A stretch of DNA of 64,000 nucleotides, from positions 64,001-128,000 of the IMG/VR virus record IMGVR_UViG_3300028805_002025. The stretch is one strand, 5' to 3'. The translations under genes were made by a program, and so were the position numbers. Each line of letters begins with the position of its first letter. The first letter of the stretch is position 1. The stretch comes from a virus (Duplodnaviria; Caudoviricetes). Below are positions 33,189 through 57,212 of the stretch, piece by piece. The notes beneath the pieces are model-generated. The model was not told the origin of the DNA. It searched no databases and saw nothing but the letters and a program-made list of their open reading frames with translations.

Positions 33189-34733
33189 TTATTCATCATC
33201 TTTAAAGTCGAATTTATTGCAATCACAGTCTGATGTTGGTGAATCATCAAAGTTGAAATTATCACAGTTGCAGTCTGTAGGTGAGTCATTGAAACTGAAG
33301 TTGTCACAGTTACAATCTGTTGGTGGCGTAGTCTCTATGAAGTCAAAATCTCCACAGTCACATTCTCCTGGTTCTGAAATGTTGAAACTTGTAATCGCAT
33401 TACAATCGCATGTTACTGTGCAATTCTGACATGGTTTCACCATGAAGGTATTAGCCTTTTTACCAGCCAGTGGTCCTTCAGTCATCGTTACACCACTGCA
33501 TGTCGTACATCCTGGTGTCTGTTCCTTGAAGAACACTTGGTAATCGTCTGGGTGATATGGGTCTCTACAGTCTCCTATCAGCATGTAGTCCTCGTATACG
33601 GATTTTGTCTCTCCACTGGGACAGGCTGGGTTCTCGACTTCCGTGTGTGTTATTGCTGTATAAGCCCAAGTAACTTTTATTCTTCCACCATATAAAGGTA
33701 GGCATCCTTCGGTACTCCAGTCTCCCTTTCCATACAACGACTCATAATACACCTTAACTGTTCCACTATCAACACAATATGTTGTAATATATTCACAATC
33801 TCCATTACATATACCGTCGTATCTCCTTCTCTGTGTGATGTAGAAGCTAAGGTTTCCAGTCACAGGATTTCCATTATAAATTACTTCTGTTGTGTTAGGC
33901 AAACTAAGCTTTGAGAGTATGGTTGAAACAGGTATCTTAAGCTCTACATCGTGGTCAACACAACACTCTATACCCTTGGTACTTAAATCACAGGGGTCTA
34001 TTGTTGTGGCAGACGTGAATGAGCCACTCTCTGTCTTCTTATTACACTTGTCATCTATTATTACTTTCTTGAAACTGCATATGACAGTAATGTTTCCACC
34101 TGTTCCAGGAATCTCAGTTGGGTTTGTAGAGAAACTGACGGTCAATGATGTGCTAGGAGTTGACTTACAGCCTTTGGATGATGATACAAACGCCTCATAC
34201 TTACACTCAGAACAGTTTTGTTCGATAGTACCTGTTATAGGATTTTTATAATCGTCCCCTTCCTTAGGTAATGCACCTTTTGTAGTAGCACTGTATCCTA
34301 TTCTCTTCTCCCTGCTGCATACCGTATTTGTTCCAGCACTGGTATACCAATATTCGTAATAAATCTTTACCTCGCCATCATCTGGATAATCATCATCAAT
34401 ATAGTATGGTACAGTCCATGTTCTAACATCAGTACATTTACACGTACACTCATCAGTGGAAGGACAATCATATGACTTTTGTTTTATCTGATAGCTTAGA
34501 GGTGCTTCTACCCCTTCTATTGTAACAGTACCAGCAGATGTTCTTTCTGGGTCGTTACATTTCAACGGCTCTAATGGTATTTCATAAGAATATATGTTGT
34601 CAAGATAATTTACGATACAGTCGCCACTCTCAGTAGTTCTGACAGTACAAGTTATGGAAGCGGATGTTTCTCTTCCATCCACTTCCAATTTCACTGGATT
34701 CTGAGTTATTATCTCTTTGGTAGTTATTTTCAT
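33189..34733 (-). CDS. Cys-rich putative baseplate/fibre-associated protein
   Basis: About 514 aa, very Cys-rich; C-terminal CxC-x2-F-x-F repeats; six S[GA]xT. Confidence 0.6.
   Translation of the reverse strand: MKITTKEIITQNPVKLEVDGRETSASITCTVRTTESGDCIVNYLDNIYSYEIPLEPLKCNDPERTSAGTVTIEGVEAPLSYQIKQKSYDCPSTDECTCKCTDVRTWTVPYYIDDDYPDDGEVKIYYEYWYTSAGTNTVCSREKRIGYSATTKGALPKEGDDYKNPITGTIEQNCSECKYEAFVSSSKGCKSTPSTSLTVSFSTNPTEIPGTGGNITVICSFKKVIIDDKCNKKTESGSFTSATTIDPCDLSTKGIECCVDHDVELKIPVSTILSKLSLPNTTEVIYNGNPVTGNLSFYITQRRRYDGICNGDCEYITTYCVDSGTVKVYYESLYGKGDWSTEGCLPLYGGRIKVTWAYTAITHTEVENPACPSGETKSVYEDYMLIGDCRDPYHPDDYQVFFKEQTPGCTTCSGVTMTEGPLAGKKANTFMVKPCQNCTVTCDCNAITSFNISEPGECDCGDFDFIETTPPTDCNCDNFSFNDSPTDCNCDNFNFDDSPTSDCDCNKFDFKDDE
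33200..33415. repeat. Five degenerate coding repeats (CDC/CNC...F-x-F)
   Basis: CDCNAITSFNI, CDCGDFDF, CNCDNFSF, CNCDNFNF, CDCNKFDF. Confidence 0.85.
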
Positions 34734-34735
34734 CC

Positions 34736-37700
34736 TTAACATCCATCGTAGTTAAACTCACAGTAGTTATACTCAACGTCGAATATTGCCGTTGATGGAA
34801 CTAGCTGTGTAAGATAGTTCATAACAATATCGTCTATATACTTAAGCTCACACTGTCCATCCTTGCTGTTGAAAGGATATTTCATGTTGAATATTATCTT
34901 CAACCTCTTGTTGTTGACAATCTGGTTCGAAACGTCATCTATACCAGTCATGTCAGTTATACCAATTCCACTAAGGCTTGCCTCATTGTAGGTTGTCATA
35001 CTTGATATGGTATATGTCTTGATACCGACCAACGCCTGCCAGTTGTCACCACTCTTCTTCGCCATACTAAGAGACCTAGCCCTTGCGGTCTCAAAGTCAG
35101 CCTGTCCACTAGCATATTTGTGCCAGTCGCCAAATACGTAAATATCCTTTATATTATACTTTCTTTCCCATATTGATTTTGTCATTTCAGAACCGTCTGG
35201 GTCTGGATTGTCCTTGAAGTTTCCGAAGTAATGAATTTTATCCTCCTCAAGAAGGAATTTGTCATATTGTTTTATCTCCTCGTTACTGTCAATAAGTCCA
35301 GAGAATCCGTAGTCAAACACCTCACCTCCAAGCCAGTCAAAACCGTCGGTGTAACACCTTGGGTCGAACTTGTCATTATCGTAGGCATACTTGAATAGCC
35401 TGTTGAAGTATGTGAAGTATTCGTGACCGCTGTCGTATACCATATTACCATTATGTCCGTTATTACCGTTGTAGTAATTGGTAATGGTGTTAATCCTCAT
35501 ATATTCGTAATCATTCTCCTTCAATCTTCTCCAGCCATCCTTCTCTCCAGGTGATGCAATACTGTCTGAGAATGAAACATCGTCCAATATGTAGTAATTG
35601 GTATATGTTATAGCACTGTCAACCTCGAAGTTGTCAGATATAATCTGGAATGACGTAATGGTATATGCAGGGTTATCGAAGTTATAGGTGATGAAATCAT
35701 CGTCCTCTTCCTTGATGTAAGCCTTTATCTCATATCCATCAAGCTTGTCGTCTATGTAGTACGTTGTTGGCTCATAGTCCTTATTATATACAACGATTGT
35801 CTCGTCAAAGTACTTATCTCCAACTGTAATGAAGCCACCCTTTCTAACGTATGTTACGAACCTTTGGTTTCCATTATGGGTGATATCGAATATCTGTCCG
35901 TTTACAACAGCAACATCCCTACCAATCCTGTTGACATAGTATATAGAGCCATCGTGCAATGCGTTCTGTGGAACGGAAACAAGGTCACTTAATGTGTCAA
36001 CCCTCTTTATACTTCTGATTGTCTCCTTATACAAAGGTCTATTATCGTCAATAAAACCGTTCTCTGTAACTGTTCCAGAAGGAACATACTGGTTATAAAC
36101 AATGTTGTCCTCAACGTCGAACTGCATATTGTATTCCTTTTCACCACCAGTAATCTTCTTGGCTAACCAACCACCGTCCATCTGGAAGTATGGGTCTCCG
36201 TCGAATTGCTCTGTCTTACTGAAATAAGGATAAAGGTATCTCTTGTATATCTTGTTTCCCTTATCGTCAAGATAGAACTCCTCAAGCTTATTCTTTAAAT
36301 ATTTTTCATCATCAGTGTATCCACTGTACTCGTATCTTGGGACAACTGGTATTCCTTGGTAAGGTATTCCAGTATAACCAATGCTTCCAGGAAGCGTATA
36401 GTTGGACTGAGACCTGTAGTCGTATGTAATTGTCTTGGTAGTGTTAACCCAGTCAATCCTGTACATCTGATGCTCCACGTCCCATTTTTCTTCAATTCTC
36501 TTTGCAAATGAGGTGTATTCCTTAATCTCATAGTCTGGCACAGCCTCGCACTCTCCTGGGTTACATCTGTCCTCAGCCTGCTTATACCTTAAGCTTGGGT
36601 CACATACATAACCATTGGCAGCGGTATATTTCATATCATTGCAATTCATTCTGTCAAGCCACCTCTTACTCTTGAGTCCGAACATACCAAGAATCATTTC
36701 AATTCCCTCGATAGTACCTTTATGTCTCCATATATACTTAGAATTAAGAGATAACCTTCTTAGAAACTCATTGTTTACACCCATGTATGAGAAGTCGTTC
36801 TCATCAGTGTATGACTTGATTCTATTTGTTATCCTGTTGGTGTCGTCATCACGCTCAAGAATAGCTGTTTCCTCGTATCTTACAACACACTCGTCTGCTG
36901 GAGTGCTACCTGGTCTTGTACCAAGCTCTGTAGCCTTCCTTATCTTAGTACCGTAGATGTCGTTAAGCCAGCATTTGAAACCGCCACCCTCTGTACAATC
37001 CATGAAGTAGCCGTTTGCGCTACCATCCTTTATATTCTCTTTTGTATATGGCTTGACAAGTTTCTTTGAATCCTGCGAGTAGTCACGTGAGAAATAAGAA
37101 ACTTTCATTTCATCACCAGTTCCAGCACTTACGGCATTACCAAGCTGTGTAGCTATGTCTGTATATACAGTATCTTCAACAACTGTACCAGCACTTTCAC
37201 CAGTTATATATTTCTCCTCAATTCCATAAGGAATGACATACTTAACGTCCCATCCATCTTCTTCACATTTATCTGACAGAAAATAGTCTGGAAGGTTACT
37301 TCTCTGGTCGTAAGTAACCCTGTTCATAAACCTTATGTTATCAATGTATGTCTTGATTTCATCAAATTCCCTTGCGAAGATTCTTAAGGCTTTCTGTATC
37401 TTCTTACCTCCAGCAACATATTCTATTTCCTCACCATCGACATATTCACGGGTATAAGTCCAGTCGAAGTTCTTGATAGCCTCGTGCGTCATTGAACGCC
37501 AGATGTTATCTGTAAATCTTTCATCATAGAATTCGCCAATCTTAATAAGCTCTGATATAAATGAATCATCAATAGTTGGATTATAGCTACCATTAGAAGT
37601 AGGGAAATAGAACGTTTTAAATTCCCTCTTATATCCAAACTCATCCTCACTTATAACTGAGAAAGTTGACTTGTACCTAGGTGTGGTGTCAAAGTTAAGA

Positions 37701-38902
37701 ATTAATTTCTCAAAAGAATTTGATTCATTGTAGAAGTCAACAAGAAATTCCTCCTTCGGTCTGATATGGTATCCAGTAAGGTCGCATTCGCTCTCAGATT
37801 CTGGTCTGCTGTACATATAATGTATCTTACCATTAGTCTCTACATAAACCCTAATCCTAATCTCCTTAGGTGCATTTGCACAATCTTTACCAAGACACTT
37901 ATCTACATCTTCCTCTGCTGCTTTCTTACCTTTAGCTGAACGCTTCCTTGTAAACCTTGTTGGTTGAACATTCATATCATCAATATTACCACAACCACAT
38001 ACAATAGGTGTAGGGCCACTGAATGTCAAAATACTTCCACAATTACAATTCTCATTTATATTAAATTCAGAAATGGCATCACAATTACAATTCTCATTTA
38101 TATTGAATTCAGAAATGGCATCACAATTACATTTGTCGCTACAATGGGGTACACAGATAAGAACCACCTTATCTATTACAATATTAAAGCTACATTTCTG
38201 TGTTTCACACGGATTGACAAGCTCGTAGTTTGAAATGCCACCATCGGCGAAATACTTCAATATCTCACCGTCTGTAGGGCGTTTCTGGGAATGCATATTG
38301 ATACCAAATGGGTTGTTGATTTCGTACAGATATTCGTTTCCGTATATATCTGGGTCTGCTTCTTCTTCTACCCTACAACCATTCTTATCCCTAACTACAA
38401 CAAGCTTCTTACCAATCTGATAGGTTTCCTCTACTACTTCTCCATCTACTGTATGTTTGTAGGTATAATATGACATATCCCCAGAGAAGAATAACTCCCC
38501 AGGAAATCTATTTACAATGTCAGTGATTGAAGACCTAAACAATTCGGTAAGAGAACCATAGTAGGCAAAGTCCCTAAAATCGTAATAGTCCTGTTTAAGG
38601 ACAATCTTGGTGTCGTTCTCCTCGTCGTAGTCTGACACCATCTGTTTTACGGTCTCAAGAGTCCATACGTCACCACTTATACCCTTCTCCCATTTCTTGG
38701 TGCTGTACTGGTTTGAAACCCTCCTATCATCCCTTACGGTTATGATGAAGTTGCTACTCTGATATATAGGTGTCTGACCAGGTGCAAACTGGTTGAGTCC
38801 ACCGATAGTAGTAATGTCCCTCTCCCAGATTGTACCGTCGTTTATGGTCTGGTGCTTTGATTTAAGCACATAGTTAGAATGCGATTTAATAAAATTACCC
38901 AT
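34736..38902 (-). CDS. Large baseplate/tail structural protein
   Basis: 1388 aa in the baseplate operon; EFLRRL...YIWRHKGTIEGIEMILGMFG resembles the wedge/P2 gpI-like KGT motif; C-terminal YLTQLVPSTAIF. Confidence 0.65.
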   Translation of the reverse strand: MGNFIKSHSNYVLKSKHQTINDGTIWERDITTIGGLNQFAPGQTPIYQSSNFIITVRDDRRVSNQYSTKKWEKGISGDVWTLETVKQMVSDYDEENDTKIVLKQDYYDFRDFAYYGSLTELFRSSITDIVNRFPGELFFSGDMSYYTYKHTVDGEVVEETYQIGKKLVVVRDKNGCRVEEEADPDIYGNEYLYEINNPFGINMHSQKRPTDGEILKYFADGGISNYELVNPCETQKCSFNIVIDKVVLICVPHCSDKCNCDAISEFNINENCNCDAISEFNINENCNCGSILTFSGPTPIVCGCGNIDDMNVQPTRFTRKRSAKGKKAAEEDVDKCLGKDCANAPKEIRIRVYVETNGKIHYMYSRPESESECDLTGYHIRPKEEFLVDFYNESNSFEKLILNFDTTPRYKSTFSVISEDEFGYKREFKTFYFPTSNGSYNPTIDDSFISELIKIGEFYDERFTDNIWRSMTHEAIKNFDWTYTREYVDGEEIEYVAGGKKIQKALRIFAREFDEIKTYIDNIRFMNRVTYDQRSNLPDYFLSDKCEEDGWDVKYVIPYGIEEKYITGESAGTVVEDTVYTDIATQLGNAVSAGTGDEMKVSYFSRDYSQDSKKLVKPYTKENIKDGSANGYFMDCTEGGGFKCWLNDIYGTKIRKATELGTRPGSTPADECVVRYEETAILERDDDTNRITNRIKSYTDENDFSYMGVNNEFLRRLSLNSKYIWRHKGTIEGIEMILGMFGLKSKRWLDRMNCNDMKYTAANGYVCDPSLRYKQAEDRCNPGECEAVPDYEIKEYTSFAKRIEEKWDVEHQMYRIDWVNTTKTITYDYRSQSNYTLPGSIGYTGIPYQGIPVVPRYEYSGYTDDEKYLKNKLEEFYLDDKGNKIYKRYLYPYFSKTEQFDGDPYFQMDGGWLAKKITGGEKEYNMQFDVEDNIVYNQYVPSGTVTENGFIDDNRPLYKETIRSIKRVDTLSDLVSVPQNALHDGSIYYVNRIGRDVAVVNGQIFDITHNGNQRFVTYVRKGGFITVGDKYFDETIVVYNKDYEPTTYYIDDKLDGYEIKAYIKEEDDDFITYNFDNPAYTITSFQIISDNFEVDSAITYTNYYILDDVSFSDSIASPGEKDGWRRLKENDYEYMRINTITNYYNGNNGHNGNMVYDSGHEYFTYFNRLFKYAYDNDKFDPRCYTDGFDWLGGEVFDYGFSGLIDSNEEIKQYDKFLLEEDKIHYFGNFKDNPDPDGSEMTKSIWERKYNIKDIYVFGDWHKYASGQADFETARARSLSMAKKSGDNWQALVGIKTYTISSMTTYNEASLSGIGITDMTGIDDVSNQIVNNKRLKIIFNMKYPFNSKDGQCELKYIDDIVMNYLTQLVPSTAIFDVEYNYCEFNYDGC
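38038..38131. repeat. 42-bp tandem repeat (about 2.2 copies) coding CNCDAISEFNINEN
   Basis: CACAATTACAATTCTCATTTATATT(A/G)AATTCAGAAATGGCAT at 38038 and 38080. Confidence 0.9.
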
Positions 38903-38903
38903 A

Positions 38904-39824
38904 CTACAAAGTTAATATTTCATTTATTTTGGTCTGTACATCTTCTTCGTATGTAATATAACCTAATTTTATGTTATGCTCTTTGCATAACTTATTTTTC
39001 CTTTCGTCTAGCTGTCTAACGTATATTAACTTATTTTCTCCACCAAAATATTCTATTGGCTTATAATGCTGTATACCTTGACATTCTATAGCAATGTTAT
39101 AATCTGGTAAATAAAAATCTAGATGTTGTTTATTTAGCCAAGGAAACACGTTTTTATCACATTTTTGTATAAACTTAATTTCAAGCTTTTCTAACTCTTT
39201 TAATGTTTTACTCTCAAGTATGCTATTATTGCAAGCAGGACATCCTTGGCCTTGTAGGTGGCAATATGGTCGTTGCCAAAATTCTCCATGTTTCTTACAT
39301 ATTACACAAACTTTTTCATAGCACCCCTTATAAACAACTTTAGAATAATCATACTTATTGCCATGTACTAATCTAGCCTCGCTAATAAAGCCATCAGTAT
39401 TTTTGAAATTATTTATCGAATTTTCAGCAATTGCACATTTTTTACATCCATGACCATTTAGATGATGATGTGCTTGTTGGTAAAATTCGCCATGCTCTGG
39501 GCATATAATGCATACTTTATCTTTTGACCTAGTATAGTTAACTTTTGAATAATCATATTTATTACCGTGTATTATTTTTGCTTTTTCTATGAAATATTCT
39601 TTTGTAAAAGACTTACTTATGCCCCTTTTATTTTTCCAACAAATTGGGCATCCAGACTCATTACGTAAATGATTATCAGCTAACTGCCAAAACTCACCGT
39701 GTTCTGGGCATATGATACATACTTTTGTTCTACAGTTTTCGTAAATCACTTTCGAATAATCATATTTATCACCATGTATTTTTTTAGCTTTGGCGATGAA
39801 TTCCTCTGTTGTTAACTTTTTCAT
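38904..39824 (-). mobile_element. Free-standing homing endonuclease-like gene inserted in the baseplate operon
   Basis: Three YDYSKV...CxxHGEF repeats; C-terminal LDFYLPDYNIAIECQGIQH; AT-rich; stop 1 nt before the next start. Confidence 0.8.
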
Positions 39825-39856
39825 AGTTTGAATGACTCTTTATAAGTGGCATTTTC

Positions 39857-40777
39857 TTAGCTTATCTTATCATCAATTGTCTGGCTAAAGTCAATTGAAT
39901 TATTCTTGTTGTGTTTAACCTCGTAGACAGGCTTTCCTGTGTACTGGTCTTTGAGTGTGAAGTGCTCTGCCTGCATATAAATCTCGTTATTGTCATTGAA
40001 TGTTGTAACAAGACCGTTGTCAAGGTCTCTGAGCTGACTGTTCTCAAGCATGTAACTGATTGTATCGGCATCATGCGTAGTCATTTCAATATCAAGCATT
40101 ATTGGCTCGAAGAACGTATTGACAAGCAATATCTTCTGCGTAGGCTTTCCTATGTATGGAAGTGCATTATCCTTGAATGTAGGTGCAGACGATGGAGATA
40201 CAGTTACGAATGTAAGAGTTGATGCATCATCATACCTGTATGTATATGATTTATCACTTGATGAGTTAGGTGCTTGTACAACTGGCTCACACCTGTTATT
40301 ACTGGTGATAATCCTGTAATAATCCTGTCTTGCTCCATTGTCATCAATATAGATAATTCTATAACCTATAAGCTCGTTATTCTTTCGTGCTTTAACCTGT
40401 ATGCTTGCATTGTTAATCATCGTCGTATCCAATACAAGACCCCTAACGTTTGGAAACGCTGTTAGAGTACTCACATCGGTAATGACAGCCTCAATCTCCT
40501 TAGGCTTGATGTAAACGCTGTAGAAACCCTTCTTATTGAACTCACTGAGAGGTAGCTGAAGGTTGTACATACCCTCTACGAACTCGTCAACGTCGCCAGT
40601 AACCTTGTCCCTTCTAGCCTGCGTAAGGATAGCTGAGTCAAGCTTCTTGAACCTGGCGTTAGTCAAAGAGTCGTAAGTCCTCTTCTCATGATAACAGTAT
40701 GATATGTCAACCAAATTTGGAATGTCAACATTAGCAATATTTATCGGTATTGTAGTACCGTAACATCCGATGGCCAT
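39857..40777 (-). CDS. Putative structural protein
   Basis: 306 aa in the baseplate operon. Confidence 0.6.
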   Translation of the reverse strand: MAIGCYGTTIPINIANVDIPNLVDISYCYHEKRTYDSLTNARFKKLDSAILTQARRDKVTGDVDEFVEGMYNLQLPLSEFNKKGFYSVYIKPKEIEAVITDVSTLTAFPNVRGLVLDTTMINNASIQVKARKNNELIGYRIIYIDDNGARQDYYRIITSNNRCEPVVQAPNSSSDKSYTYRYDDASTLTFVTVSPSSAPTFKDNALPYIGKPTQKILLVNTFFEPIMLDIEMTTHDADTISYMLENSQLRDLDNGLVTTFNDNNEIYMQAEHFTLKDQYTGKPVYEVKHNKNNSIDFSQTIDDKIS

Positions 40778-40799
40778 ATTGTAAAATTTTTTTGGTATA

Positions 40800-44015: not shown

Positions 44016-44017
44016 TT

Positions 44018-47000: not shown

Positions 47001-47161
47001 TTGCCGATTGAGAATGCAATCTGCTCCTTCTTTTCAAGGTGATAGTCCTGGCTTGTCACTCCAGAAACAAATGAAAGGTCTGGGGCAAGATATTTCTCAC
47101 TCCAAACCAATTCATCCCTACGTATGCTCTTGTCATCAAGTTTTATACTGTAAGTTAACAT
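44018..47161 (-). CDS. Large putative structural protein
   Basis: 1047 aa beta-rich; about 16 S[GA]xT. Confidence 0.65.
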   Translation of the reverse strand: MLTYSIKLDDKSIRRDELVWSEKYLAPDLSFVSGVTSQDYHLEKKEQIAFSIGNDTNADTLNISCNNVTRNGYIVIKDKAYDIQSGNTINYATDKVYENYRYVEIGGVIYYISANTTSITVKNWLKEAWSVNGEDYTVSIVESDVEAKIEGNFVYLDTVVWIEDETVEIDGHKYFFDRYDISSVNSSPGGIKYYEDGEALAASAITRSKEDKMYYNHFEDDSDYIYVTKFVLTKKELKNIPFDRISFCTYFYYVFYKDNYCPVRISGETYVCDVLERLYKEDIQEEDYYTTSAFTVYYDDTEGEEIVSKELTTDVVDRISLLKDIESYIKIEGVTLPVNSLLQNANHGDEIGVYLTYDATNISVGDIITLENEEYEDYVSGVYSMSGETFVLYDNKKYKIVKRMCDKALINGHEYAIDYINGIVDEKDALVDIVGEKVPMKIVSGGTKLERHGETISASSSAAVTVTYDIVQHDGIQINDNIYQVFSGVAFSGDGVNSAESFVQIEEKVPFQFVVKSIEGSSLLVCTPNFNVYDFNDEFRERVNAGICDYFVTNQSTTLLYVKNKSFGVREITSEIGYSSGEDNPETSNEYYDLFRNLVLYVDTGHIHIPLKFDINVANNMMQEDLVNRDFYEAEKKKAINDIVDMEKDVYVPKYISGTTYKGSTTDFLPISEIEVNLHFRTRNLENWRVNDGYNDRESFCAHTDNWFVTDFFPYNEILRDSATTSGDVLQNTSDLMGLLFFTNDDIYYQRDKVGKSFLRFSYYDSPDPNTQTLMATSTVFIDEHKLFKKYIDNSRKNVYDYGLVENHPNETGKSYSGNVTNRISVMTEYVSAHTKTKKDYSIGDLSGETLSGDTRRISSKFIINNKYETDTSSEGFYLYMFKEYSEKLHPKPIYMKVEFNHAGIGRTIPFIVPMHWMSGTTATYNNAGVNIFNPERMLRLSATTDVDEMKSGYTLSQVYAQTYIPLYAVYDFKKKEYAYVFDERYVTPPASGDGRVVLNLFELKIAYETAEGDAERKNVTMGRGTKSLINVNNEQFDRRYFNKDYR

Positions 47162-50100
47162 TCTATTTCCTCTTCTTTGATGTAGTTATTTTCATCCTCT
47201 ATAGGTGGCTCTATTCCTGGAATGTCGTCCTCTGCGTAAAGGTTGTACCAGTTGTTAGGGTCTTGTCTTCTCAGATACAGGTCTATCCTCCTGTTGATGT
47301 AGAAAGCACCGTTGGTGAATGGGTACTCTTCAAGCGTCTTGTCTGACGTGTTAAATCCATTGTTTAATATGTCTCTCCATATGAACCTACAAGTACCGTC
47401 TTTCAGAACCCTTGCATATGAAGGAACGTCCAGGTTGTCAATCTTGAACAACTTGTACCTTACAACATCGTCCTCATCGTATAGTTTATCACCGTCTATG
47501 TCAGTTGCAGGATTTCCGTCCTCATCCGCTATTGTACATGTGTATACCTTAGGGTTGTCACGTGTTCCTCTCACAGTAGTGCAGTAATAGTACTTATTAG
47601 TCACCTTGTCATAAATCATTGACTTGTCACCAGGTGAAATGAAGTGCTTCTCAAGGGTTGTTATCGTCGTTGTATTGTCATTGTTATTCACAAGTGACAT
47701 TATTGATAGGAAGTCTGGCATTATAGTTCTAAGCTTGTCGAAGCTCCTTATAGGTATCTGATAATGAGGGATATAGTAATATCCTTCCTTTTTGTTATTA
47801 CAATTCATGAAAGTGTCATTCTTTATTTTGAATATATTTCCAGTATCGTAATCGTCATACTCTATATCGTCATACAGGAATTCAGCAAACCTATCACTTC
47901 CAGTTTTAGATATGATTGATTCTCTTTGTGCTGTGTTTACCCTGTGAAGTATAGGCTGTATTACCCTCTCAATTGCGTTATAATTATCATAGTAACATAA
48001 GTCTCCATAATAGTTTATATCACTATCGAACCATATCTCCTCACTTCTGATTGGTACTTCTAAACTTCCGTCCCTATATGACCTTGTTCCATTTATGGCT
48101 TCTATGTCATAACCGAAGTCAGTACCCTCAACCAGGTTTATCTTCTTGATGTTATTGTTTCCTGGTTCACACGTACACTGGTCTGACATTTCCAATCCAC
48201 ATGTTATTCTACCGAAGCAATGGGAGTATTCAACAGCACTGCTATTGATATCTATATCCCTGTCATATCCATACCATTCCTTGTATCCCTTGTTGTTTTT
48301 CACTATCGTTACGAATAGTTCTGACAATGGTCTTCCAAGGTTGTCCTTGAGGTAAGATAAATCGATATCATCAGTGAATACTATCTCACCAACTTCATCG
48401 GTGTATATGTTCTTGGCAAAGGCAAGCCTGCTTACATGGCTCTCAAAGTCATACTCTGGTTGCTGGTATATCTGTATGAGGTTTCTAGTATCCTCGTCAC
48501 TTCTCTGCCTATATATCTCATACTCGTTTGAAGTGTCACCACTTGAGTACTTGAAGTTAGGAAGCCTTGAGAATATCCTCACGTAGTAATCACATTCTAT
48601 GTCGTTTACAACCTTCTTGTATGATATATGAAGAGCATCGTCATCAAAGTTGACATATGGTGTATCCGTATCCTCATTTACAATATAATATTTCCTTGTA
48701 TCTGCTGGGTCAGTATGTCTATAGAATTTCCTTGACTCATCCTTAATATATTCAACATTATTAACTGTGATGGTATTACCTTCCTTTTCCTCCTGTGTAA
48801 GCTGAACCCAGTTCCTACTTATTGTTACATCCTGGGTATATACAGTGAATATGAAGTCATCCACAACATTCTCAACCTCAGCATTGTCAAGTATCTTCAC
48901 ATTTATAGGATTACCCTCAGTATCAGCACTAAGCTTGTATATGTTGACGTAATCGCCCTGTGCTAGACCGTGTTTAGCCTTACTGTAAATTACGAGCATC
49001 TGAGTGCCGTTATCATTACGTCTTGTCTCGTCGTAATAGATAGCCTTCAATGACTTATCGAACTCGAATATATCGTCAAATCCTTCAGTTGTAGATGATG
49101 AAGGATATGTGATGCAGTAGTTCCAGTTCTTCTCAATCCTCTGTCTGAAGTGATTGAACTTAGGTACGAATGAATACAAGTCCCTTCCTGGGTACATGTC
49201 AACGAAGTCGCCACCGTTAAGATACATGATAGGTCTCTCTATATATAGGTCGTCACTCTTACTGAAGTTCTTATATGACTTTATCTTTGATGTGTTATAG
49301 AAGCCAAGCCATCCGTTGTAGGTGGAGACAAGTCTTTCCTCTATTGAATTTTTGAAGGTAAGAATATCGTCATACAGATAGGTATGAAGTGTTAAGAACT
49401 TTGTATGTCCATTTACTCCTGCTGTATTAGGGTAATATAGTTTCTCAATGACCCTGTATCCCCTAACGTCCCTCATGTAGTCAGCAATTGTGTTGAAAGC
49501 CTGGTATGCGTTATTTGCATTATAGTCATATGAATCTTCCAGCATCTTACAAACACATTTGAATGTGTTACTTCTTATGAGGTGATTATTAAGGATATCA
49601 AGACCACAATGATACACGAAATGATTATGTTTTTTATCATTTCTTGAAAGCTGTGTGTCCCTTATGGAGTTTGTAGGATGCCAAGGTGTTGTACCAGTCG
49701 TATTCACCAAATCAGAACTTCCAACAGCAGGTTGTGAAGCTATGTGTGCTCCAAGTCCACTAACCTTAGTATGCGGGTCAGTACCAGCTAGAAAATTGTC
49801 TATAGTCTGATAACTCATTGTGTTTCCAGACCAAAAATTGATAGTATTGTTCTTGTATACAACCTGTTCATTATCAAAAACATCTGACTTTCCAGTTATA
49901 CCATAGTTGACAAAGGTCACAGCACTGCTACCCTCATCCTTCACAATCTCACTTATTCTGTTGAAAAGGACATTTGAACAGACAGGGTTTACCTGGCATG
50001 TAAGCCTTATTTTGTTACACGCCCTCCTCTCGTCATTGTACACATCAAATGAACTGATGACCTCAGCCAGGTCGTTCAAGGGTAACAGTTTCCTATTACC

Positions 50101-50184
50101 CCTCAACGGCACGTTCAATTCACTGTCAGTGTTAACAGCACTCTTACTGTTGTATCCTTCAAGAAATATCTTATTCTCTTTCAT
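47155..50184 (-). CDS. Large putative structural protein
   Basis: 1009 aa; DNLGRPLSELF, YPFTNG...LRRQDP; in the baseplate operon. Confidence 0.65.
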   Translation of the reverse strand: MKENKIFLEGYNSKSAVNTDSELNVPLRGNRKLLPLNDLAEVISSFDVYNDERRACNKIRLTCQVNPVCSNVLFNRISEIVKDEGSSAVTFVNYGITGKSDVFDNEQVVYKNNTINFWSGNTMSYQTIDNFLAGTDPHTKVSGLGAHIASQPAVGSSDLVNTTGTTPWHPTNSIRDTQLSRNDKKHNHFVYHCGLDILNNHLIRSNTFKCVCKMLEDSYDYNANNAYQAFNTIADYMRDVRGYRVIEKLYYPNTAGVNGHTKFLTLHTYLYDDILTFKNSIEERLVSTYNGWLGFYNTSKIKSYKNFSKSDDLYIERPIMYLNGGDFVDMYPGRDLYSFVPKFNHFRQRIEKNWNYCITYPSSSTTEGFDDIFEFDKSLKAIYYDETRRNDNGTQMLVIYSKAKHGLAQGDYVNIYKLSADTEGNPINVKILDNAEVENVVDDFIFTVYTQDVTISRNWVQLTQEEKEGNTITVNNVEYIKDESRKFYRHTDPADTRKYYIVNEDTDTPYVNFDDDALHISYKKVVNDIECDYYVRIFSRLPNFKYSSGDTSNEYEIYRQRSDEDTRNLIQIYQQPEYDFESHVSRLAFAKNIYTDEVGEIVFTDDIDLSYLKDNLGRPLSELFVTIVKNNKGYKEWYGYDRDIDINSSAVEYSHCFGRITCGLEMSDQCTCEPGNNNIKKINLVEGTDFGYDIEAINGTRSYRDGSLEVPIRSEEIWFDSDINYYGDLCYYDNYNAIERVIQPILHRVNTAQRESIISKTGSDRFAEFLYDDIEYDDYDTGNIFKIKNDTFMNCNNKKEGYYYIPHYQIPIRSFDKLRTIMPDFLSIMSLVNNNDNTTTITTLEKHFISPGDKSMIYDKVTNKYYYCTTVRGTRDNPKVYTCTIADEDGNPATDIDGDKLYDEDDVVRYKLFKIDNLDVPSYARVLKDGTCRFIWRDILNNGFNTSDKTLEEYPFTNGAFYINRRIDLYLRRQDPNNWYNLYAEDDIPGIEPPIEDENNYIKEEEIEC

Positions 50185-50186
50185 AG

Positions 50187-53100
50187 TTACATACTTGCGC
50201 TTGTATTTGCTTTTTCACCATTTTTCATTGTACTTGTCTTAGAAGTGGCATCATAATGCCCTCCACTATCGCCATCACTCTGGTCCATAAAATTGATTGC
50301 AAACGTATCTAGTTTGTATATAAAGCTACTTTGCGTCTTTGCATAAATAGTGCATTTACATTTACCTTTCCATTCGTCATCAGCAAGCACACCCATTCCG
50401 TTAGGCCATCTTACCATAAGGTGAACTTCTACATCAGTACCGTTGGCAGTAGTCCACGAACTAGTTGGCTGGACATCGAACAAATCTTTTTCATTTTCAA
50501 ATCTGAATGTATATCCAATCATTGAATAAGCAGCAAATGATTCTGATTCTCTCTTAGTAGGAGGTTGACCAGTTTCTAGTAACATATCAAATGTAATAAC
50601 CTGGATATGCACCTTGTTTTCACCACTTCCACTCTCAGTACCGCCAGAAGTTTCAACTGTAGTTTCGTACTTGTCTTCTTCTTCATTATATGTTGTCTCG
50701 GCACTAACAACATGTTCTACTGGTACTTTAACCTCTGTTGCTCCTATTACTTTACACTGAATGTATGTTTGAAGATTACTGATTTTCATAAGAACCTTTC
50801 TACTGTCATAGATTTCACCAAATTCTATACTCCTTAGACGACGCTTGAGTTTATCATCATCAATATACTCATATACTCTATCAACAAGTATACAGAACGC
50901 CATAATATTTTTTATGTTTATGTGTTCCCTTTGGAATTTGATATTTTCAAAATCATTACTGTCTGATGTAACCCAATCTTTTATGTTGTTGTTATAATAA
51001 AAAGGAGACGATATATTGTCACTAACTGAATTCTTATAATTCTTTTCGTGATAATCATCAAGGTTAAAACCAGATGGTAAGAATGTATCTTTTCCTCCAG
51101 AAGAGAACAAATCTATGAAGGTGTTACTATCTTTGAAGAACTTATATAGTAAAATGTTATCATCATCAATGATTCCATCAATAGTGCCTCTAGCAGCTAT
51201 TTCACCTGTTGGGGTCACGGTCTTTATGTAAGATATTCCATCATAATCGTTAATATATGGAAGAACCTTAATTACTCTTGGAACACTAGTATACACATCA
51301 AAGTCATCATTTTCCACCATATTGTATCTGAAATACAAATTAGCTTCCGATGCTTCGAACTTTCTGTATTTTTTTCCAGAGATTGTTTCTTCCGTAGTTC
51401 CAGAATATAGTACATTGCAGTAATCATTACTGTCATCATTTGGTGGTAGGAATTCCACTGGTTCTGTGAAGTCATTAAGGAATGACAAACCATCATCGCC
51501 AACAGCCTTACATGTAATTTCTCCGTTTTCCTCTACAACAGGTTTGATGTTGTATGAACAAGGTAATATGTCAAACTCGTAGGTTTCACTAGGAGTTATG
51601 TTACAGATATCTATCATCCTAACAGTAGGGTAATTTCCTTGTCTAGCAACGTTCTCCATGTTGAAATCTCCATTATATCCATTTGGAATAGAAGCGTGTC
51701 TGAAATCCATGTTGGTCTTTGGGTAATTGAATATATATGGAACACTACTAGTAATACTACAAGTAGAAGCTGCCTCAGATAATCTATCCTCATTAAATTG
51801 TGACCAGAAGAAGTTCCTTATATCAAATCCTCCAAAAGATGCAGTGTAATATCTTTTCACTATTTGTTCTTTTCCTGGTTCTGGTGTATCGCCCTCCCAT
51901 ATCATGTTTTGCTCAGTATTGTAATACGTGATAGCATCGCCATCAGTACCCCCACTTGGTATCACATATGAATATTCTAGTCTCTTATTCCTATCTGCTT
52001 TAGTTGCATATCCCTTGGTTATAATAACTTCACTACCTTCTATTGTCTCGGATGATGTTGGGAATGTTGTGTCTGCCGATATGATATTATAGTCCTTGTC
52101 GTAGGACATTTCAATACCATTGTATGTCCATCCACTTATACGTGCGGATTTCCAGATAGTTTCCCTACCATCAGCAATTGTAGCTGGTATTGGATTACCT
52201 TGGTCATCAAGCATAGGATTTCCATCTTTATCAGTCATAATACCTTCCGTTGTTGGATAAAGATTTATTGCCGTACCCATTACTGGTGCAAGTATAAGAA
52301 GGTCAAAATCAAATCTTCTATCAACAAACATTGACCTAAGATATGGCTGATAATTTCCTCTCTTCTCAAATGTATATGCAAAATGACCAAGCCTATTAAC
52401 CTCATCAGTTCCAATTACCTTTTCATTTGCACCCTCTCTAGGAGTTACCTTTGTGTAGTTAGGAATTTTCATTGCCTTTATGGAACTGTCAATAGCCGTA
52501 CTACTTGTATAACCACCATTCTGTGTAAATGCAGCAAAATAGTTACCAAGAACATCACACTCATTATACATGCAGTTAAAGTATGGCTCTTGTGGGTCAC
52601 TTGTATGCCCAGAATAGTTGTTTCCAACTATAAGAGGATAATCATCACGTCCAGTTGCCTTGTTGCTCTCACTTAACACATACCTTGATAAAAAATTTTT
52701 ACCATTATACTGAGGCACTACAGACCTGTACAGTATAGGGTTCACACCTCCACGAGTGGCATATGTGAATGGACTAGTTCCATCCACGACATATCCAGAC
52801 TTGGACAGACTAAACATGGAGTTGAACTTGAACTTCAATATGTTAGCCTTTGACTTATATGAAGTTATAGGTGTTTTCAAATCCACATAATCCAACCATA
52901 CATCAGTATTCCTCAATACTGTTGCAGAATCTGGCATATTGAACCTGTACGTAGTTTCCTGGTGTAGTCCATACCATCCAATAAGCCCAGAACCACGAGG
53001 TGTCCTCACAACTTCTGAACGATAGAAATTACTCTGGTTTGCTATTGTCGCAGCACTACTATCGCTAACACTACCAAGCATGAACTTAACTGGCATGCCA

Positions 53101-56100
53101 CTAAGATATGCATTAAAGTTCTCACCATTGTTAACAGCAACAATCTCAGATGACGTGTTACCAGACAACTCCATGTTGTCACATATCTGAGTTATTGTTA
53201 ATGTAAAATTATTTGGTTGGTATACGAAAAATGTATTAGGATTCTTTGTTCCTTTATCATCTGCAAACCAGTATGTAGTAGGAGGGTCTGATGACGCAGC
53301 CTCTTCTATATAAACACCACCAGCAGCTCTCTGTGCTGTTGTTGCTGAATTTGTTTTATCACACAAACATTCCTTAACGAATCCAGGTCCTGGTGACTCT
53401 GAAACACCAAGCTTAATGACAGCGTATGCCGTAAGCTTGTTGTTTCCCTCTTCATCGCCACTGACATCATCAGTTTGACCAGTAAGCCATACTATGTACG
53501 AGTCACTTGTTCTGTCATAACCCTGTGCAAGCGAATCAGTTATGTAATACATGTATCCATCAACAACAAAGTCCGTTATCTTCAACTTTCCATAGAATTG
53601 TGTTTCATCAGTACAGATGTAGTCAATCCTGGTCGTTGCTGTTGAATAGAACCTCGTACCAAGCTGATGGGCCTCGTAATCAACTGCAATCTTAGGTATT
53701 GATAACTCAATCTTCTCACTAATGTGTCTTCCGTTAACATCAGTTACTGTTAATGTATAGGTCTGATTTGTAAGACCACTACTATCATCGCTTCCATTAC
53801 CATACATGTTATGAACAGGCGTTCCAGAATTACTTCCAACCTGGTAATATACCATACCCTCTGGGTTTGACTTAACATTACCATTATCATCGATATATCC
53901 ACCAATGATAAACCTACTTTCAGTCATACCAGTTTCTGAAATAACTTCCATTCCTGCTTCATCAAATAATGAGTACGAATATGGCATCTGAATATCATCA
54001 AGTACAACGTCTATGTATGCATATCCATCATAATTGGCGACATTCCCACCAGCATATGTTGAAGGACAATATGACCTACCCCTTGTTGAATAATCAAAGG
54101 TAAATGGCTTCTTATCATTTTGGAAACAAGGAGCATAGAACAATTTGTTGAACTTGTCAATAGCAGTACTACCCTTGTTTATACCGAAGTAGAAGAAGAA
54201 TGAGTTATTGTATAAAGGCATTTTGTAAACCCTGTCATTTTTCTTCGTAAAGTAGAAATGTCTTATTCTACGTTCCTCATTCTTGTCATACGTTAATCCG
54301 CTTTCAGCACCAAGTCTGAATGTCAGATATGCCTCATCTGTTTCATCAAATGATGCCTGGTTGAAATCGTAGCTGTAGTTCTCCATAATTGGACTCATTC
54401 TACCGTCGAAATCCACAGGGTATATATACTTGAACTTAGGTATAAGATAACCAGTGTGTTCATCCTGTACCTGCGTCGCATATGCACCTATCTTATCCTG
54501 GTAATCCTGCGGTATGAAGCCTATATGATTAAGCGTTGCGAACATTGCACGGGTTTCCATATCATCAAGTTCATACTTGGTGATAAATCCATCCGTGCTT
54601 ATCTTTCCATATTTAACATCGTTTCCTCCATTTGAATAAGCCATATTATGAGTCATATCAAGACCAACGCCAAGCTCACTAAGTCTCTCTACATTGATAC
54701 AAGACTTAGCCTTGGTATCAGCATATGTACATGACAAGTCCATGAATAAGCCCTCGCCATATAAAGGAGTCTGGCTAGCACCACTAGCACCCCAATCCAT
54801 ACCAGTTGTTATAACTGTACCAACATCAGTTGCATCATCTGTATCATTGCTAGGTGTCTTGTCGTCCTTATTGGTTGTATCCTCTTGCACTGTAGCAATG
54901 AGAGGTATGTTTGCCGTTGTTGATGGAAGGCCTTTATACAACTGAGGAATACCGTAGTAGTTATCCTCATTCAAGTTACCAAGCAGTATGATATCCGTAG
55001 CATACAGTCTTACCATGTAGAAGCGGTTAAACCTCTGCTTGATTGGCATCACATGCTCTCTCTTATCACTTGTATTTGCATGGAATGCTGTATAGTAATA
55101 AGCTGTAAGACCATCTTTATTCTCCACACCCTTTATAAGACCGTTTGTGAACCATATCCTAGATGTTCTTCTCTTATGCCATCTGTTCTCGTCGTAATCA
55201 ACGGAATCATCAGTGGTTTGTAAACTATTACCATCATACTCTATTTCACATGTAACGAATGTCTTCTGTCTGGTGTAATCCTTATCACAGTCACAGAACT
55301 CATTCTTTGCCCTTCTTACAAATAATCCGAACAGGAATGACTTCTTCTTTCTCTTTCTCCAGTACCACAAAGGCATATACAATACACCGTTAATCCAATC
55401 CTGGTAGAAGTCAAGCTTTACAATCTTAAAGTCACGGGCAAGATTTCTTTCAATTCTGTCCTTCAACTCCTTAGCATCATATCCACCCTTCTTAACACAG
55501 TCGTCTTCCATATCCTCTGGACAATCTGCTTCATTAAGTCCATTGCTACACCAACATCCTGGGAAGTAAGCTATGTTACCTTCCTCAAGACCCGCTGACA
55601 ATGCAATACAGCCTATTGGGTCTGGTATCCATCCAAAAAGGGCTTTGAATGGTCTAATACCAAAAATTTTTACATTTTTAATCTTCTGGAAGAACCCAAG
55701 AATAATATTAACACCACATATGAGTGTATTAATAACAGTAACAATCAATATGATGATTCTGAATATGATACACACCACAATATACATGAATGGGAGGTCG
55801 ATACGAAGTTTGTTGAATGGAACAGGATTCTGGTCTTCAACAAGGTTAGCTCCCTTCAATGCAGAGTAGTTAGGTGCATATGCCCTGTGAGCAACCTGTG
55901 TCTTAGGTATGAAATTCTTAACACTGTAAACATTATTCCAATAAAGGTCACGGAAACAGCTTTGAGGGGTATTAGAACCGAAGTTATACATCTTCTCCAT
56001 TTCCTCTCCTGTCTCCTCCTGCGTCATTGGAATCTCTGGATTCTTGGCTTTACTACCACCCTTCGCAGGTCCTTCATACAGTACAGGATTCATTGGAACA

Positions 56101-57212
56101 AGGTACTTTGCAGTGTGCTTTGATACACCCTCGTTACCAGTCTCTGTCTTGCTTATCCTAAACCTAACCTGTGTTCTGGTTGGAATACCAGTGGTAGGGT
56201 TATCGGTTGGTACAATATTACCATATTCGTCAGTTCCTATGTAATCAAGGTTCATAGGTATCTGGTAGCACCATACACCGTCGCTGTCGATTAGGGCATT
56301 ACCCTGTATTGGGTATTCCTCAACAAGGCCGTCTGTGGTCTTACGAATCATTTCAATTGTACCCTCTCCAGCAATGAGCTGTGCGTTCATACCGTTCTCC
56401 TCATTTGGAGCACACTTATGACCGATTGAGTTACCCTCATTATCAGATACAATAGAACCCATAAACACACAAGTTGGCTCGAACTTGTATGCTATCTGTA
56501 CATCACACCTGGTAATAGCTGCAACGCCATTCTCAGCGTCACCCCAGAATGGATATACATACACGCTCTTATCCTGTGAAAATATTTGTCTAAGGCTGTC
56601 AAAATTGGTGCTAGCCTTAAACTGGCTTGGACTGTCAAATTCTGACAAGTCATAGCCTCTATATGTAAAATCTCTTGGCTTCTGTGACAATATACCTATG
56701 TCAGACAGGTCAATGTCAACATGAACCGTCTGACTGCCAGTAGGTACACCGAATATCATATAGTCGCCAGCGTTGTTGGTAACTGTGGTGTATTTATAGT
56801 ATTTGTCATATACCGCAAGCTGTATATTGTCGTCAAGGAGATATCTCTTCTGTGGGAACGTACCTACCACCCTATAACAATCATCGTCGCTATAGTCTGG
56901 CAACAGGTTGTACCTTCTTCCCTCCTTGTCCTTGCTAGTTACCTCACTGTATGGGTAAATGTTCTCCATATCAACAGGGTCATTCTCGTCCCTCTCGATG
57001 AAAACGGAGATTTTTGCATTTGGAATACCAAACGCATCATTAGCAAGAACCCTTCCAATTATGACACCATAGTTGGAAGAGTGTAGTCTGTAGGTATCCT
57101 TTTGTCTTAACTTCAGTGACAGAATCTCCATGAAGTCGAAATCCTGTTTCAAGTTAACATTAAGAAGGGTATCCTTTATAATATTGGTATGTATTCTAAA
57201 ACTTTTTTCCAT
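50187..57212 (-). CDS. Very large virion protein with carboxypeptidase-regulatory-like N-domain, hydrophobic hairpin and SprB-like repeat
   Basis: 2341 aa; YGVIIGRVL...GIPNAKISV...TNNAGDYMIFGVPTG; long hydrophobic segment; PYSYSL...GLTNQTYTLTVTDVNG. Confidence 0.65.
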   Translation of the reverse strand: MEKSFRIHTNIIKDTLLNVNLKQDFDFMEILSLKLRQKDTYRLHSSNYGVIIGRVLANDAFGIPNAKISVFIERDENDPVDMENIYPYSEVTSKDKEGRRYNLLPDYSDDDCYRVVGTFPQKRYLLDDNIQLAVYDKYYKYTTVTNNAGDYMIFGVPTGSQTVHVDIDLSDIGILSQKPRDFTYRGYDLSEFDSPSQFKASTNFDSLRQIFSQDKSVYVYPFWGDAENGVAAITRCDVQIAYKFEPTCVFMGSIVSDNEGNSIGHKCAPNEENGMNAQLIAGEGTIEMIRKTTDGLVEEYPIQGNALIDSDGVWCYQIPMNLDYIGTDEYGNIVPTDNPTTGIPTRTQVRFRISKTETGNEGVSKHTAKYLVPMNPVLYEGPAKGGSKAKNPEIPMTQEETGEEMEKMYNFGSNTPQSCFRDLYWNNVYSVKNFIPKTQVAHRAYAPNYSALKGANLVEDQNPVPFNKLRIDLPFMYIVVCIIFRIIILIVTVINTLICGVNIILGFFQKIKNVKIFGIRPFKALFGWIPDPIGCIALSAGLEEGNIAYFPGCWCSNGLNEADCPEDMEDDCVKKGGYDAKELKDRIERNLARDFKIVKLDFYQDWINGVLYMPLWYWRKRKKKSFLFGLFVRRAKNEFCDCDKDYTRQKTFVTCEIEYDGNSLQTTDDSVDYDENRWHKRRTSRIWFTNGLIKGVENKDGLTAYYYTAFHANTSDKREHVMPIKQRFNRFYMVRLYATDIILLGNLNEDNYYGIPQLYKGLPSTTANIPLIATVQEDTTNKDDKTPSNDTDDATDVGTVITTGMDWGASGASQTPLYGEGLFMDLSCTYADTKAKSCINVERLSELGVGLDMTHNMAYSNGGNDVKYGKISTDGFITKYELDDMETRAMFATLNHIGFIPQDYQDKIGAYATQVQDEHTGYLIPKFKYIYPVDFDGRMSPIMENYSYDFNQASFDETDEAYLTFRLGAESGLTYDKNEERRIRHFYFTKKNDRVYKMPLYNNSFFFYFGINKGSTAIDKFNKLFYAPCFQNDKKPFTFDYSTRGRSYCPSTYAGGNVANYDGYAYIDVVLDDIQMPYSYSLFDEAGMEVISETGMTESRFIIGGYIDDNGNVKSNPEGMVYYQVGSNSGTPVHNMYGNGSDDSSGLTNQTYTLTVTDVNGRHISEKIELSIPKIAVDYEAHQLGTRFYSTATTRIDYICTDETQFYGKLKITDFVVDGYMYYITDSLAQGYDRTSDSYIVWLTGQTDDVSGDEEGNNKLTAYAVIKLGVSESPGPGFVKECLCDKTNSATTAQRAAGGVYIEEAASSDPPTTYWFADDKGTKNPNTFFVYQPNNFTLTITQICDNMELSGNTSSEIVAVNNGENFNAYLSGMPVKFMLGSVSDSSAATIANQSNFYRSEVVRTPRGSGLIGWYGLHQETTYRFNMPDSATVLRNTDVWLDYVDLKTPITSYKSKANILKFKFNSMFSLSKSGYVVDGTSPFTYATRGGVNPILYRSVVPQYNGKNFLSRYVLSESNKATGRDDYPLIVGNNYSGHTSDPQEPYFNCMYNECDVLGNYFAAFTQNGGYTSSTAIDSSIKAMKIPNYTKVTPREGANEKVIGTDEVNRLGHFAYTFEKRGNYQPYLRSMFVDRRFDFDLLILAPVMGTAINLYPTTEGIMTDKDGNPMLDDQGNPIPATIADGRETIWKSARISGWTYNGIEMSYDKDYNIISADTTFPTSSETIEGSEVIITKGYATKADRNKRLEYSYVIPSGGTDGDAITYYNTEQNMIWEGDTPEPGKEQIVKRYYTASFGGFDIRNFFWSQFNEDRLSEAASTCSITSSVPYIFNYPKTNMDFRHASIPNGYNGDFNMENVARQGNYPTVRMIDICNITPSETYEFDILPCSYNIKPVVEENGEITCKAVGDDGLSFLNDFTEPVEFLPPNDDSNDYCNVLYSGTTEETISGKKYRKFEASEANLYFRYNMVENDDFDVYTSVPRVIKVLPYINDYDGISYIKTVTPTGEIAARGTIDGIIDDDNILLYKFFKDSNTFIDLFSSGGKDTFLPSGFNLDDYHEKNYKNSVSDNISSPFYYNNNIKDWVTSDSNDFENIKFQREHINIKNIMAFCILVDRVYEYIDDDKLKRRLRSIEFGEIYDSRKVLMKISNLQTYIQCKVIGATEVKVPVEHVVSAETTYNEEEDKYETTVETSGGTESGSGENKVHIQVITFDMLLETGQPPTKRESESFAAYSMIGYTFRFENEKDLFDVQPTSSWTTANGTDVEVHLMVRWPNGMGVLADDEWKGKCKCTIYAKTQSSFIYKLDTFAINFMDQSDGDSGGHYDATSKTSTMKNGEKANTSASM

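Follow-up and report, generated by a model that had tools for sequence, protein, structure and literature searches.

The window analysed here is a stretch of 64,000 nucleotides that spans bases 64001-128000 of a contig of 241,681 bp from an uncultured virus (IMG/VR record IMGVR_UViG_3300028805_002025; completeness about 75%), and the phage under study is called G000 below. In a series of giant proteins encoded in this window, the tetrapeptide S-[G/A]-x-T (S[GA]xT, where x is any residue) occurs far more often than expected. A preliminary description of the window had proposed the tetrapeptide as the recognition sequon of a virion modification system. The genes encoding the seven enriched proteins (cluster 1, window 27205-57212) and three control proteins are given below in window coordinates, with the site numbers expected from each protein's own amino-acid (aa) composition.

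50187-57212, minus strand: 2341-aa giant, directly downstream of the baseplate wedge gene; 12 sites
47155-50184, minus strand: 1009-aa protein; 4 sites, 0.35 expected
44018-47161, minus strand: 1047-aa protein, beta-rich and multi-domain; 16 sites, 0.56 expected, the most enriched
40800-44015, minus strand: 1071-aa protein; 12 sites, 0.63 expected
34736-38902, minus strand: 1388-aa protein; 5 sites, 0.58 expected
33189-34742, minus strand: 517-aa protein; 6 sites, 0.46 expected
27205-31281, minus strand: 1358-aa protein, weakly enriched; 5 sites, 1.46 expected, 2 of the sites lying in an internal duplication
57470-59491, minus strand: 673-aa baseplate wedge subunit, an internal, embedded control; no sites
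12981-15359, minus strand: 792-aa SbcC-like nuclease subunit, a non-virion control; no sites
24068-26380, minus strand: 770-aa protein with a weak viral BACON match; no sites, 1.0 expected

None of the giants matched a Pfam or PHROG family. The counts given in the preliminary description (16, 12, 12, 6, 5, 5 and 4 in the seven proteins, the 517-aa protein being listed there as 514 aa, and none in the three controls) were all reproduced exactly by our recount. The labels SbcC and wedge were confirmed by PHROG matches, whereas the 770-aa protein, although site-free as described, could not be confirmed as a fibre.

The enrichment extends beyond the window. In the whole contig we counted 151 S[GA]xT sites versus 43-44 expected. 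Cluster 1 accounts for 61 of these (5.9 expected), and a second cluster of fibre-type genes outside the window, at 189-217 kb of the genome (cluster 2), for 70 (15.0 expected), whereas the remaining ~230 reading frames contain 20 sites where 23.0 are expected. Overall, the tetrapeptide is found in the outer tail, baseplate and fibre proteins of G000 and many relatives at 5 to 10 times the chance level. The composition-corrected expectations for the seven cluster 1 proteins are 0.35-1.5 sites each, and in 2000 residue shuffles per protein the observed numbers were significant at p <=0.0005 for six of the seven and at p 0.019 for the 1358-aa protein. Thr stands at +3 of more than half of the S[GA] dipeptides in the 1047-aa protein (16 of 26). 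When all 8,000 patterns of the type a-b-x-c were ranked in the seven proteins, SAxT (28 versus 2.2 expected, p 2e-21) and SGxT (32 versus 3.4, p 1e-20) stood at the top, while the third-ranked pattern reached only p 1e-4. The enrichment that had been noticed by eye thus persists after composition correction, both genome-wide and, as described below, in related phages, and is stronger than first stated.

The signal lies at the level of the protein, because the underlying DNA pattern is frame-specific (58 occurrences in frame 0, compared with 6 and 0 in the two shifted frames and 9 on the complementary strand), the sites draw on both families of serine codons (AGY and TCN), and the excess of AGT and TCT codons, with T as third base, is also seen at S[GA]x[not T], as a general codon-context effect before codons starting with G. 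The first two of these observations also rule out a codon artefact and a signal in the DNA itself, for instance a site of restriction or methylation. A compositional or low-complexity artefact was likewise ruled out by the shuffles, the corrected expectations and the lack of enrichment of sister patterns. T[GA]xT, S[GA]xS, SSxT and shifted spacings showed weak or no enrichment; T[GA]xT reached 1.3-1.8 times the expected number, so that Ser at position 1 is strict, with a related genome, G026, as a possible exception. At position 4, Thr is 3.6 times enriched and Glu is not, while x is little constrained. Around the motif, Lys and Arg are under-represented at -1 and +6, and the most frequent residues at -1 are C, P, I, T, G and V, without enrichment of Asp. 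In both clusters the flanks of the sites lack a consensus and the spacing is irregular, in agreement with the earlier view that the sites are dispersed in non-repetitive contexts. Duplication of one repeat fold would need conserved flanks and regular spacing, neither of which is present, the exception being certain hexad-repeat fibres of the relatives G001 and G007. The enrichment is therefore real, acts on the protein and is not derived from duplication.

The sites are confined to outer virion proteins and avoid conserved cores. The 2341-aa giant has no site in its conserved residues 1-960, the N-terminal ~470 aa of which are conserved throughout the superclade, and all 12 sites fall in the variable residues 961-2341. 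In the sheath protein, the three sites (residues 349, 383 and 480) are all located outside the sheath-homology region (643-1154). No S[GA]xT site was found in the DNA polymerase, NrdD, SbcC, the tape-measure-like protein or the wedge. To see the sites in a structural context, we used an AlphaFold model of the beta-rich, multi-domain 1047-aa protein (pLDDT 80.5), whose fold gave only weak structural matches of a generic beta-sandwich type (TM 0.06 or less) and no convincing relative. Of its 16 sites, three are mid-strand and three belong to helix N-caps; about seven mark the end of a strand or a hairpin turn, in varying register, and loops hold the remainder. Many of the fibre sites coincide with breaks in coiled-coil-like segments. 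These contexts (strand, hairpin, N-cap, coiled-coil break) are mixed and therefore do not correspond to one fold element. The preliminary description had allowed that the sites might be buried turns of one repeat fold; as far as a single fold is concerned, the model speaks against this.

Furthermore, the positions of the sites change in evolution while their density is kept. For the 1047-aa protein, 78 homologues were found, which share 38-96% identity with it and are encoded on contigs that reach 426 kb. The 75 homologues that were aligned carry a mean of 7.1 sites (range 1 to 18) versus 0.45 expected. More than 100 alignment columns have a site in at least one of the 75 homologues, and a single column is widely conserved, that of query position 33, where the site is kept in 61 of the 75. 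Taken together, the behaviour of S[GA]xT is that of a sequon, with scattered sites, little constraint at x, a location in the variable parts of outer virion proteins and a density kept despite turnover. A literature search for the tetrapeptide as a motif gave nothing relevant, in line with its having been called undescribed.

To follow the motif across lineages, eight related IMG/VR genomes were assembled and virion proteins were sampled from eight further genomes. The numbers below give observed over expected S[GA]xT, as a ratio or as counts, in open reading frames (ORFs) at least 450 aa long:

G000: 4.7 times expected, enriched
G001: 5.3 times expected, enriched
G006: 6.1 times expected, enriched
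G011: 3.9 times expected, enriched
G012: 4.8 times expected, enriched
G002: 20 versus 3.7, enriched
G003: 31 versus 4.6, enriched
G022: 31 versus 4.7, enriched (complete genome)
G014: 30 versus 4.1, enriched (96% complete)
G024: 15 versus 2.9, enriched (complete genome)
G004: 1.0 times expected, at chance
G005: 1.3 times expected, at chance
G021 (IMGVR_UViG_3300045988_155520): 2 versus 4.0, at chance (complete genome with terminal repeats)

The ten enriched genomes thus range from 3.9 to 7.3 times expected, versus 0.5-1.3 in G021, G004 and G005. In every fully covered enriched genome SGxT ranks first or second genome-wide and is beaten by CPxC only, whereas in G004 and G005 it is not among the top-ranked patterns. 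CPxC and CPxH, which are zinc-finger patterns, are the top enriched tetrapeptides genome-wide and reflect the many homing endonucleases. The orthologues of the sheath, of a 767-aa family and of the giants are either enriched together or not at all, and on a tree of the giant's conserved N-terminal domain the motif state needs at least five changes. A search with this domain turned up about 200 relatives in IMG/VR. A pattern scan of the motif-free G021, which has G008, G022 and G000 as enriched neighbours, revealed no replacement motif. In the complete, 380-kb G026 (loci L340, L346, L368 and L377), the top pattern is TGxT (14 versus 2.9, p 2e-6; T[GA]xT, 16 versus 4.7), which may be a lineage-specific shift of the motif. 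Two apparent losses were set aside. G007 is not a clean negative sister of G006, as its contig breaks exactly at the fibre/GT-B region and the proteins shared by the two are unenriched in both. P0026 and P0039, low-count lineages in the close clade, still have baseplate clusters that are 3-4 times enriched. The coordinated and repeated genome-wide gain and loss of the motif in homologues of unchanged fold argues for a trans-acting reader. This is the firmest of our inferences, and we consider it probable that such a reader exists.

We propose that S[GA]xT may serve as a short linear motif for recognition, whose high density selection would maintain on exposed, variable parts of outer virion proteins, namely the baseplate-side giants, the fibres and the insertion domain of the sheath, where it would be read by a trans-acting factor. 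The likeliest reader would be an enzyme that acts in the cytoplasm of the host and modifies Ser or Thr after translation, either ahead of assembly or in the course of it; the leading candidate modification would be O-glycosylation. Selection would act on the number of sites, individual sites being dispensable. Taken as a whole, this explanation appears to us evenly balanced between right and wrong, and we judge a covalent modification of the motif to be about as probable as its absence. O-glycosylation by a phage glycosyltransferase is a possibility that we hold tentatively and regard as the less probable outcome. While the reader is inferred from the behaviour of the motif, its being a modifying enzyme, the sugar as modification and the identity of the gene are speculative; the reader could be a host enzyme, a non-covalent partner or a conserved phage protein that varies in specificity from lineage to lineage.

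Three glycosyltransferases of G000 were considered as candidates:

window 16928-18463, minus strand: TOD1/MUCI70-like protein, 511 aa, two domains; Pfam TOD1_MUCI70 (DUF616) C-terminal domain, 63 bits versus a cut-off of 21.4
near the fibre block: GT-B protein, 405 aa, of a virus-only family, with a GT4-like fold (pLDDT 90.7)
near the fibre block: Glyco_tranf_2_5 (GT2_5) protein, 229 aa; 98 bits versus a cut-off of 27

The first of these had been named in the preliminary description as the glycosyltransferase involved, and its Pfam match upholds the assignment to a glycosyltransferase-like family. Compared with solved structures, neither the GT-B nor the TOD1-like sequence gave a significant match. 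At the level of structure, Foldseek placed the GT-B protein closest to the retaining GT4 enzymes GlgM, BshA, PglA and MshA (probability 1.00, TM 0.6-0.68). An initial phylogenetic profile over eight genomes singled out just six of the 263 G000 proteins as shared by all enriched genomes and missing from G004 and G005. Three of these six were the glycosyltransferases, and the others were an AAA ATPase, a SprT-like protein (a putative metalloprotease) and a 125-aa protein. This six-gene profile rested on one branch of the tree and collapsed when G014, G021, G022, G024 and G026 were added. The AAA ATPase, SprT-like and 125-aa genes fail the wider profile as well, the SprT-like gene being present in the motif-free G021 and absent from the enriched G014 and G024. 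The GT-B gene is found in every enriched genome examined and is absent from G004, G005, G016 and G017, which lack glycosyltransferases and are not enriched. An early impression that the TOD1-like gene was the best correlate was an artefact of scoring two proteins per genome. The flanks of the GT-B gene and of distant TOD1 homologues consist mostly of small non-structural genes, whose motif content is uninformative. Two further conserved genes of glycosyltransferase-like type lie at 233.9-236.4 kb of G000. A Hanks-type kinase was not found in G000. DNA glycosylation is a possible role of the three glycosyltransferases, although the enriched G006, which has all three, lacks a ThyA-family gene whose product could be a hydroxymethylase.

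Several observations weigh against the reading of S[GA]xT as a selected sequon glycosylated by the phage. In the wider genome sample, no phage gene was found that follows the motif state. The enriched G022 and G014 lack the TOD1-like gene, and the enriched G024 lacks the GT2_5 gene, whereas the motif-free G021 has both GT-B and GT2_5, with GT-B intact at 68 of 69 invariant columns. Moreover, the solved structures nearest to the GT-B protein act on small molecules or lipid-linked sugars and not on proteins. In 20 sister pairs, the Thr of the motif was conserved in 66% versus 58% for ordinary Thr (p 0.02), while the Ser and the Gly or Ala were no better conserved than ordinary residues (not significant) and x was at baseline, which indicates that purifying selection per site is weak and marginal. 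As the motif residues are barely better conserved than others, single sites appear expendable, with the density kept through turnover. In addition, the repetitive fibres of relatives carry the tetrapeptide as the core of a hexad repeat, N-[IV]-[ST]-G-x-T. Long fibres of this kind are encoded at G001 329994-333794 and G007 223121-227599 (loci L080 and L136), with 27-30 copies of the tetrapeptide as structural unit; judged from these repeats, the tetrapeptide can be structural too.

For the individual enzymes, the consequences differ. The link of the motif to GT-B is one-sided and only partial: none of the genomes without GT-B is enriched, yet G021 has the gene without the motif. Co-occurrence with glycosyltransferase genes, suggested earlier as a check, holds for the presence of GT-B in all enriched genomes and breaks down for G021 on the one side and for the TOD1-like gene on the other. 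The TOD1-like enzyme is common in enriched genomes and dispensable for the trait. The earlier proposal that it acts as the motif reader is not supported, given its absence from two strongly enriched genomes, and we consider it very unlikely to be an essential component. What survives of the original claim is the recognition sequon, which fits the evolutionary behaviour of the sites; the mechanism then put forward, cytoplasmic O-glycosylation by the enzyme at 16928-18463, is unsupported in that form, and the glycosylation reading as a whole is supported only in part.

Some features of the TOD1-like family were seen along the way. Paralogues of its N-terminal ~240-aa domain are fused to other C-terminal domains (494-aa ORFs). 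Relatives of the TOD1-like protein are encoded at G001 122686-123381, G006 91329-92099, G007 315148-315891, G011 307518-309606 and G012 43206-44582; the two domains are separate genes in G011, and in G012 they are in swapped order with a stop between them. These fusions, splits and swaps point to a modular enzyme family. At G024 156169-156915, the TOD1-like C-terminal domain reads through an in-frame TAG, which could mean a pseudogene, two genes or a recoded stop.

The exposed location of the motif, its turnover with kept density and its genome-wide gain and loss would be explained as well as by a sequon if S[GA]xT were a non-covalent docking site for a decoration protein, a chaperone of assembly or a ligand from the host surface or the environment, with loss of the partner leading to loss of the motif. 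A docking site needs no glycosyltransferase to track the motif, in line with the failed profile. However, four residues with a free third position offer little binding energy or specificity to a protein partner, the diverse local structures around the sites are easier to reconcile with an enzyme that works on accessible or flexible stretches than with a rigid binding partner, and no candidate partner gene co-varies. We regard a docking site as unlikely, though it is the most probable of the alternatives. A structural turn or helix cap, favoured by some lineages in their beta-rich and coiled-coil virion proteins, would do without any reader. Most sites in the 1047-aa model do lie at strand ends, two-residue hairpins and helix N-caps, fibre sites are often placed at coiled-coil breaks or form the core of the hexad repeat, and the site at position 33 is kept in most homologues. 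This explanation was nevertheless already disfavoured, and we consider it improbable: homologues of the same fold in G021, G004 and G005 lack the enrichment, site positions are not conserved and their contexts are heterogeneous. Moreover, turns usually let S, T, N and D replace one another, so that a strict Ser at position 1 with a strict Thr at position 4 is untypical of them. A coordinated loss across unrelated folds has no structural rationale, and G021 shows no alternative enriched turn motif.

Cleavage sites of a maturation protease share the shape of the motif, a small residue, any residue and a fixed residue, as in the S/A/G-x-E sites of phiKZ-like prohead proteases, and the SprT-like gene was among the six that co-varied at first. 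The sites are found on sheath insertions, fibres and baseplate giants and not on head or scaffold proteins, cleavage at 12-16 sites per protein would destroy the proteins, and the SprT-like gene fails the wider profile; we thus hold protease sites to be highly improbable. The selected recognition motif with a trans-acting reader, perhaps a modifying enzyme, remains the best explanation. A broader version of it, to be taken as a tentative idea that we would rather bet against, is a widespread marking of the virion surface of jumbo and mega phages, in which an unrecognised phage or host enzyme would write a scattered O-linked sequon S/T-G/A-x-T onto all exposed tail, baseplate and fibre surfaces, the mark being switched on and off over evolution, perhaps with host or environment.

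Other genes in and near the giant block were also noted. A gene for an HNH homing endonuclease (PHROG 559, E 2e-63) and an adjoining ORF of equal length (306 aa) without a family, at window 38904-39824 and 39857-40777 (both on the minus strand), are located among the giant structural genes. At window 26547-27194 (minus strand), an Amidase_3 (N-acetylmuramoyl-L-alanine amidase) gene adjoins the gene of the virion-type 1358-aa protein; its product is probably an endolysin or a virion-associated lysin. Outside the window, at G000 136133-139396 (L145:8133-11396, minus strand), a 1087-aa NrdD-like anaerobic ribonucleotide reductase has an insert at about residues 410-757 that matches PHROGs labelled terminase or primase and is probably an intein or a homing-endonuclease insertion. 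In the seven giant proteins, cysteine patterns are over-represented (C-x-C, 27 versus 6.6; CNC, 6 versus 0.4; C-x-C-D, 8 versus 0.54), which suggests metal-binding or disulfide clusters in the outer proteins.

If S[GA]xT does serve as a sequon for modification, the whole adsorption apparatus of these large phages, which appear to be of gut or rumen type, would be coated with a chemical mark, with effects on host recognition, protease resistance and interactions with mucus or immunity. Phage biology would gain a defined O-linked sequon that is predictable from sequence alone. The negative result matters as well: the neighbouring phage glycosyltransferases, the obvious candidates, do not explain the trait, and experiments should not assume them.

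Among known systems with short motifs, the prohead proteases of phiKZ-like phages cut S/A/G-x-E sites, with Glu at P1, in head, scaffold and inner-body proteins. Here, in contrast, position 4 is Thr and the proteins concerned are sheath insertions, fibres and baseplate giants. The general O-glycosylation motif of Bacteroidota, D-[S/T]-[A/I/L/V/M/T], is used in the periplasm and needs Asp at -1. Like S[GA]xT, it spans three to four residues and has at its centre a Ser or Thr with a small or aliphatic residue after it. That the two motifs differ had been pointed out before; Asp is not enriched at -1 here, and the cytoplasm is where virion proteins assemble. Bacterial adhesins are glycosylated in the cytoplasm by HMW1C/NGT, at N-x-S/T, and by the heptosyltransferases TibC/Aah. 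The likeness lies in a soluble enzyme acting on a large, beta-rich surface protein with many very short motifs that have a free position. In those systems, the sugar is attached to Asn or to Ser in long structural repeats, with a dedicated and tightly linked transferase, whereas the motif described here is without Asn and no transferase co-varies cleanly with it. None of the three annotated glycosyltransferases belongs to GT41 or to the oligosaccharyltransferases, the genome itself not having been searched with those families.

The closest parallel comes from mycobacteriophages. Virions of Che8, Corndog and Myrna are reportedly O-glycosylated by phage-encoded glycosyltransferases, as Freeman et al. 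2023 are said to have described, and the acceptors are reported to be Ser/Thr-rich C-terminal tails of capsid and tail-tube proteins. Phage-encoded glycosyltransferase genes, which this type calls for, are present here, and there are three different ones. The enzymes differ in kind, being TOD1/MUCI70-like, a virus-only GT4-like GT-B and GT2_5, and so does the candidate acceptor, a motif of four residues scattered over baseplate, fibre and sheath-insertion regions. Capsid glycosylation by phage glycosyltransferases is among the subjects cited in PMC11256854. What sequon-directed glycosylation calls for, a short, scattered motif with a free position that is enriched on its targets, is found in G000. 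As in the mycobacteriophages, a phage with its own glycosyltransferases may modify exposed Ser or Thr residues of its own virion proteins in the cytoplasm.

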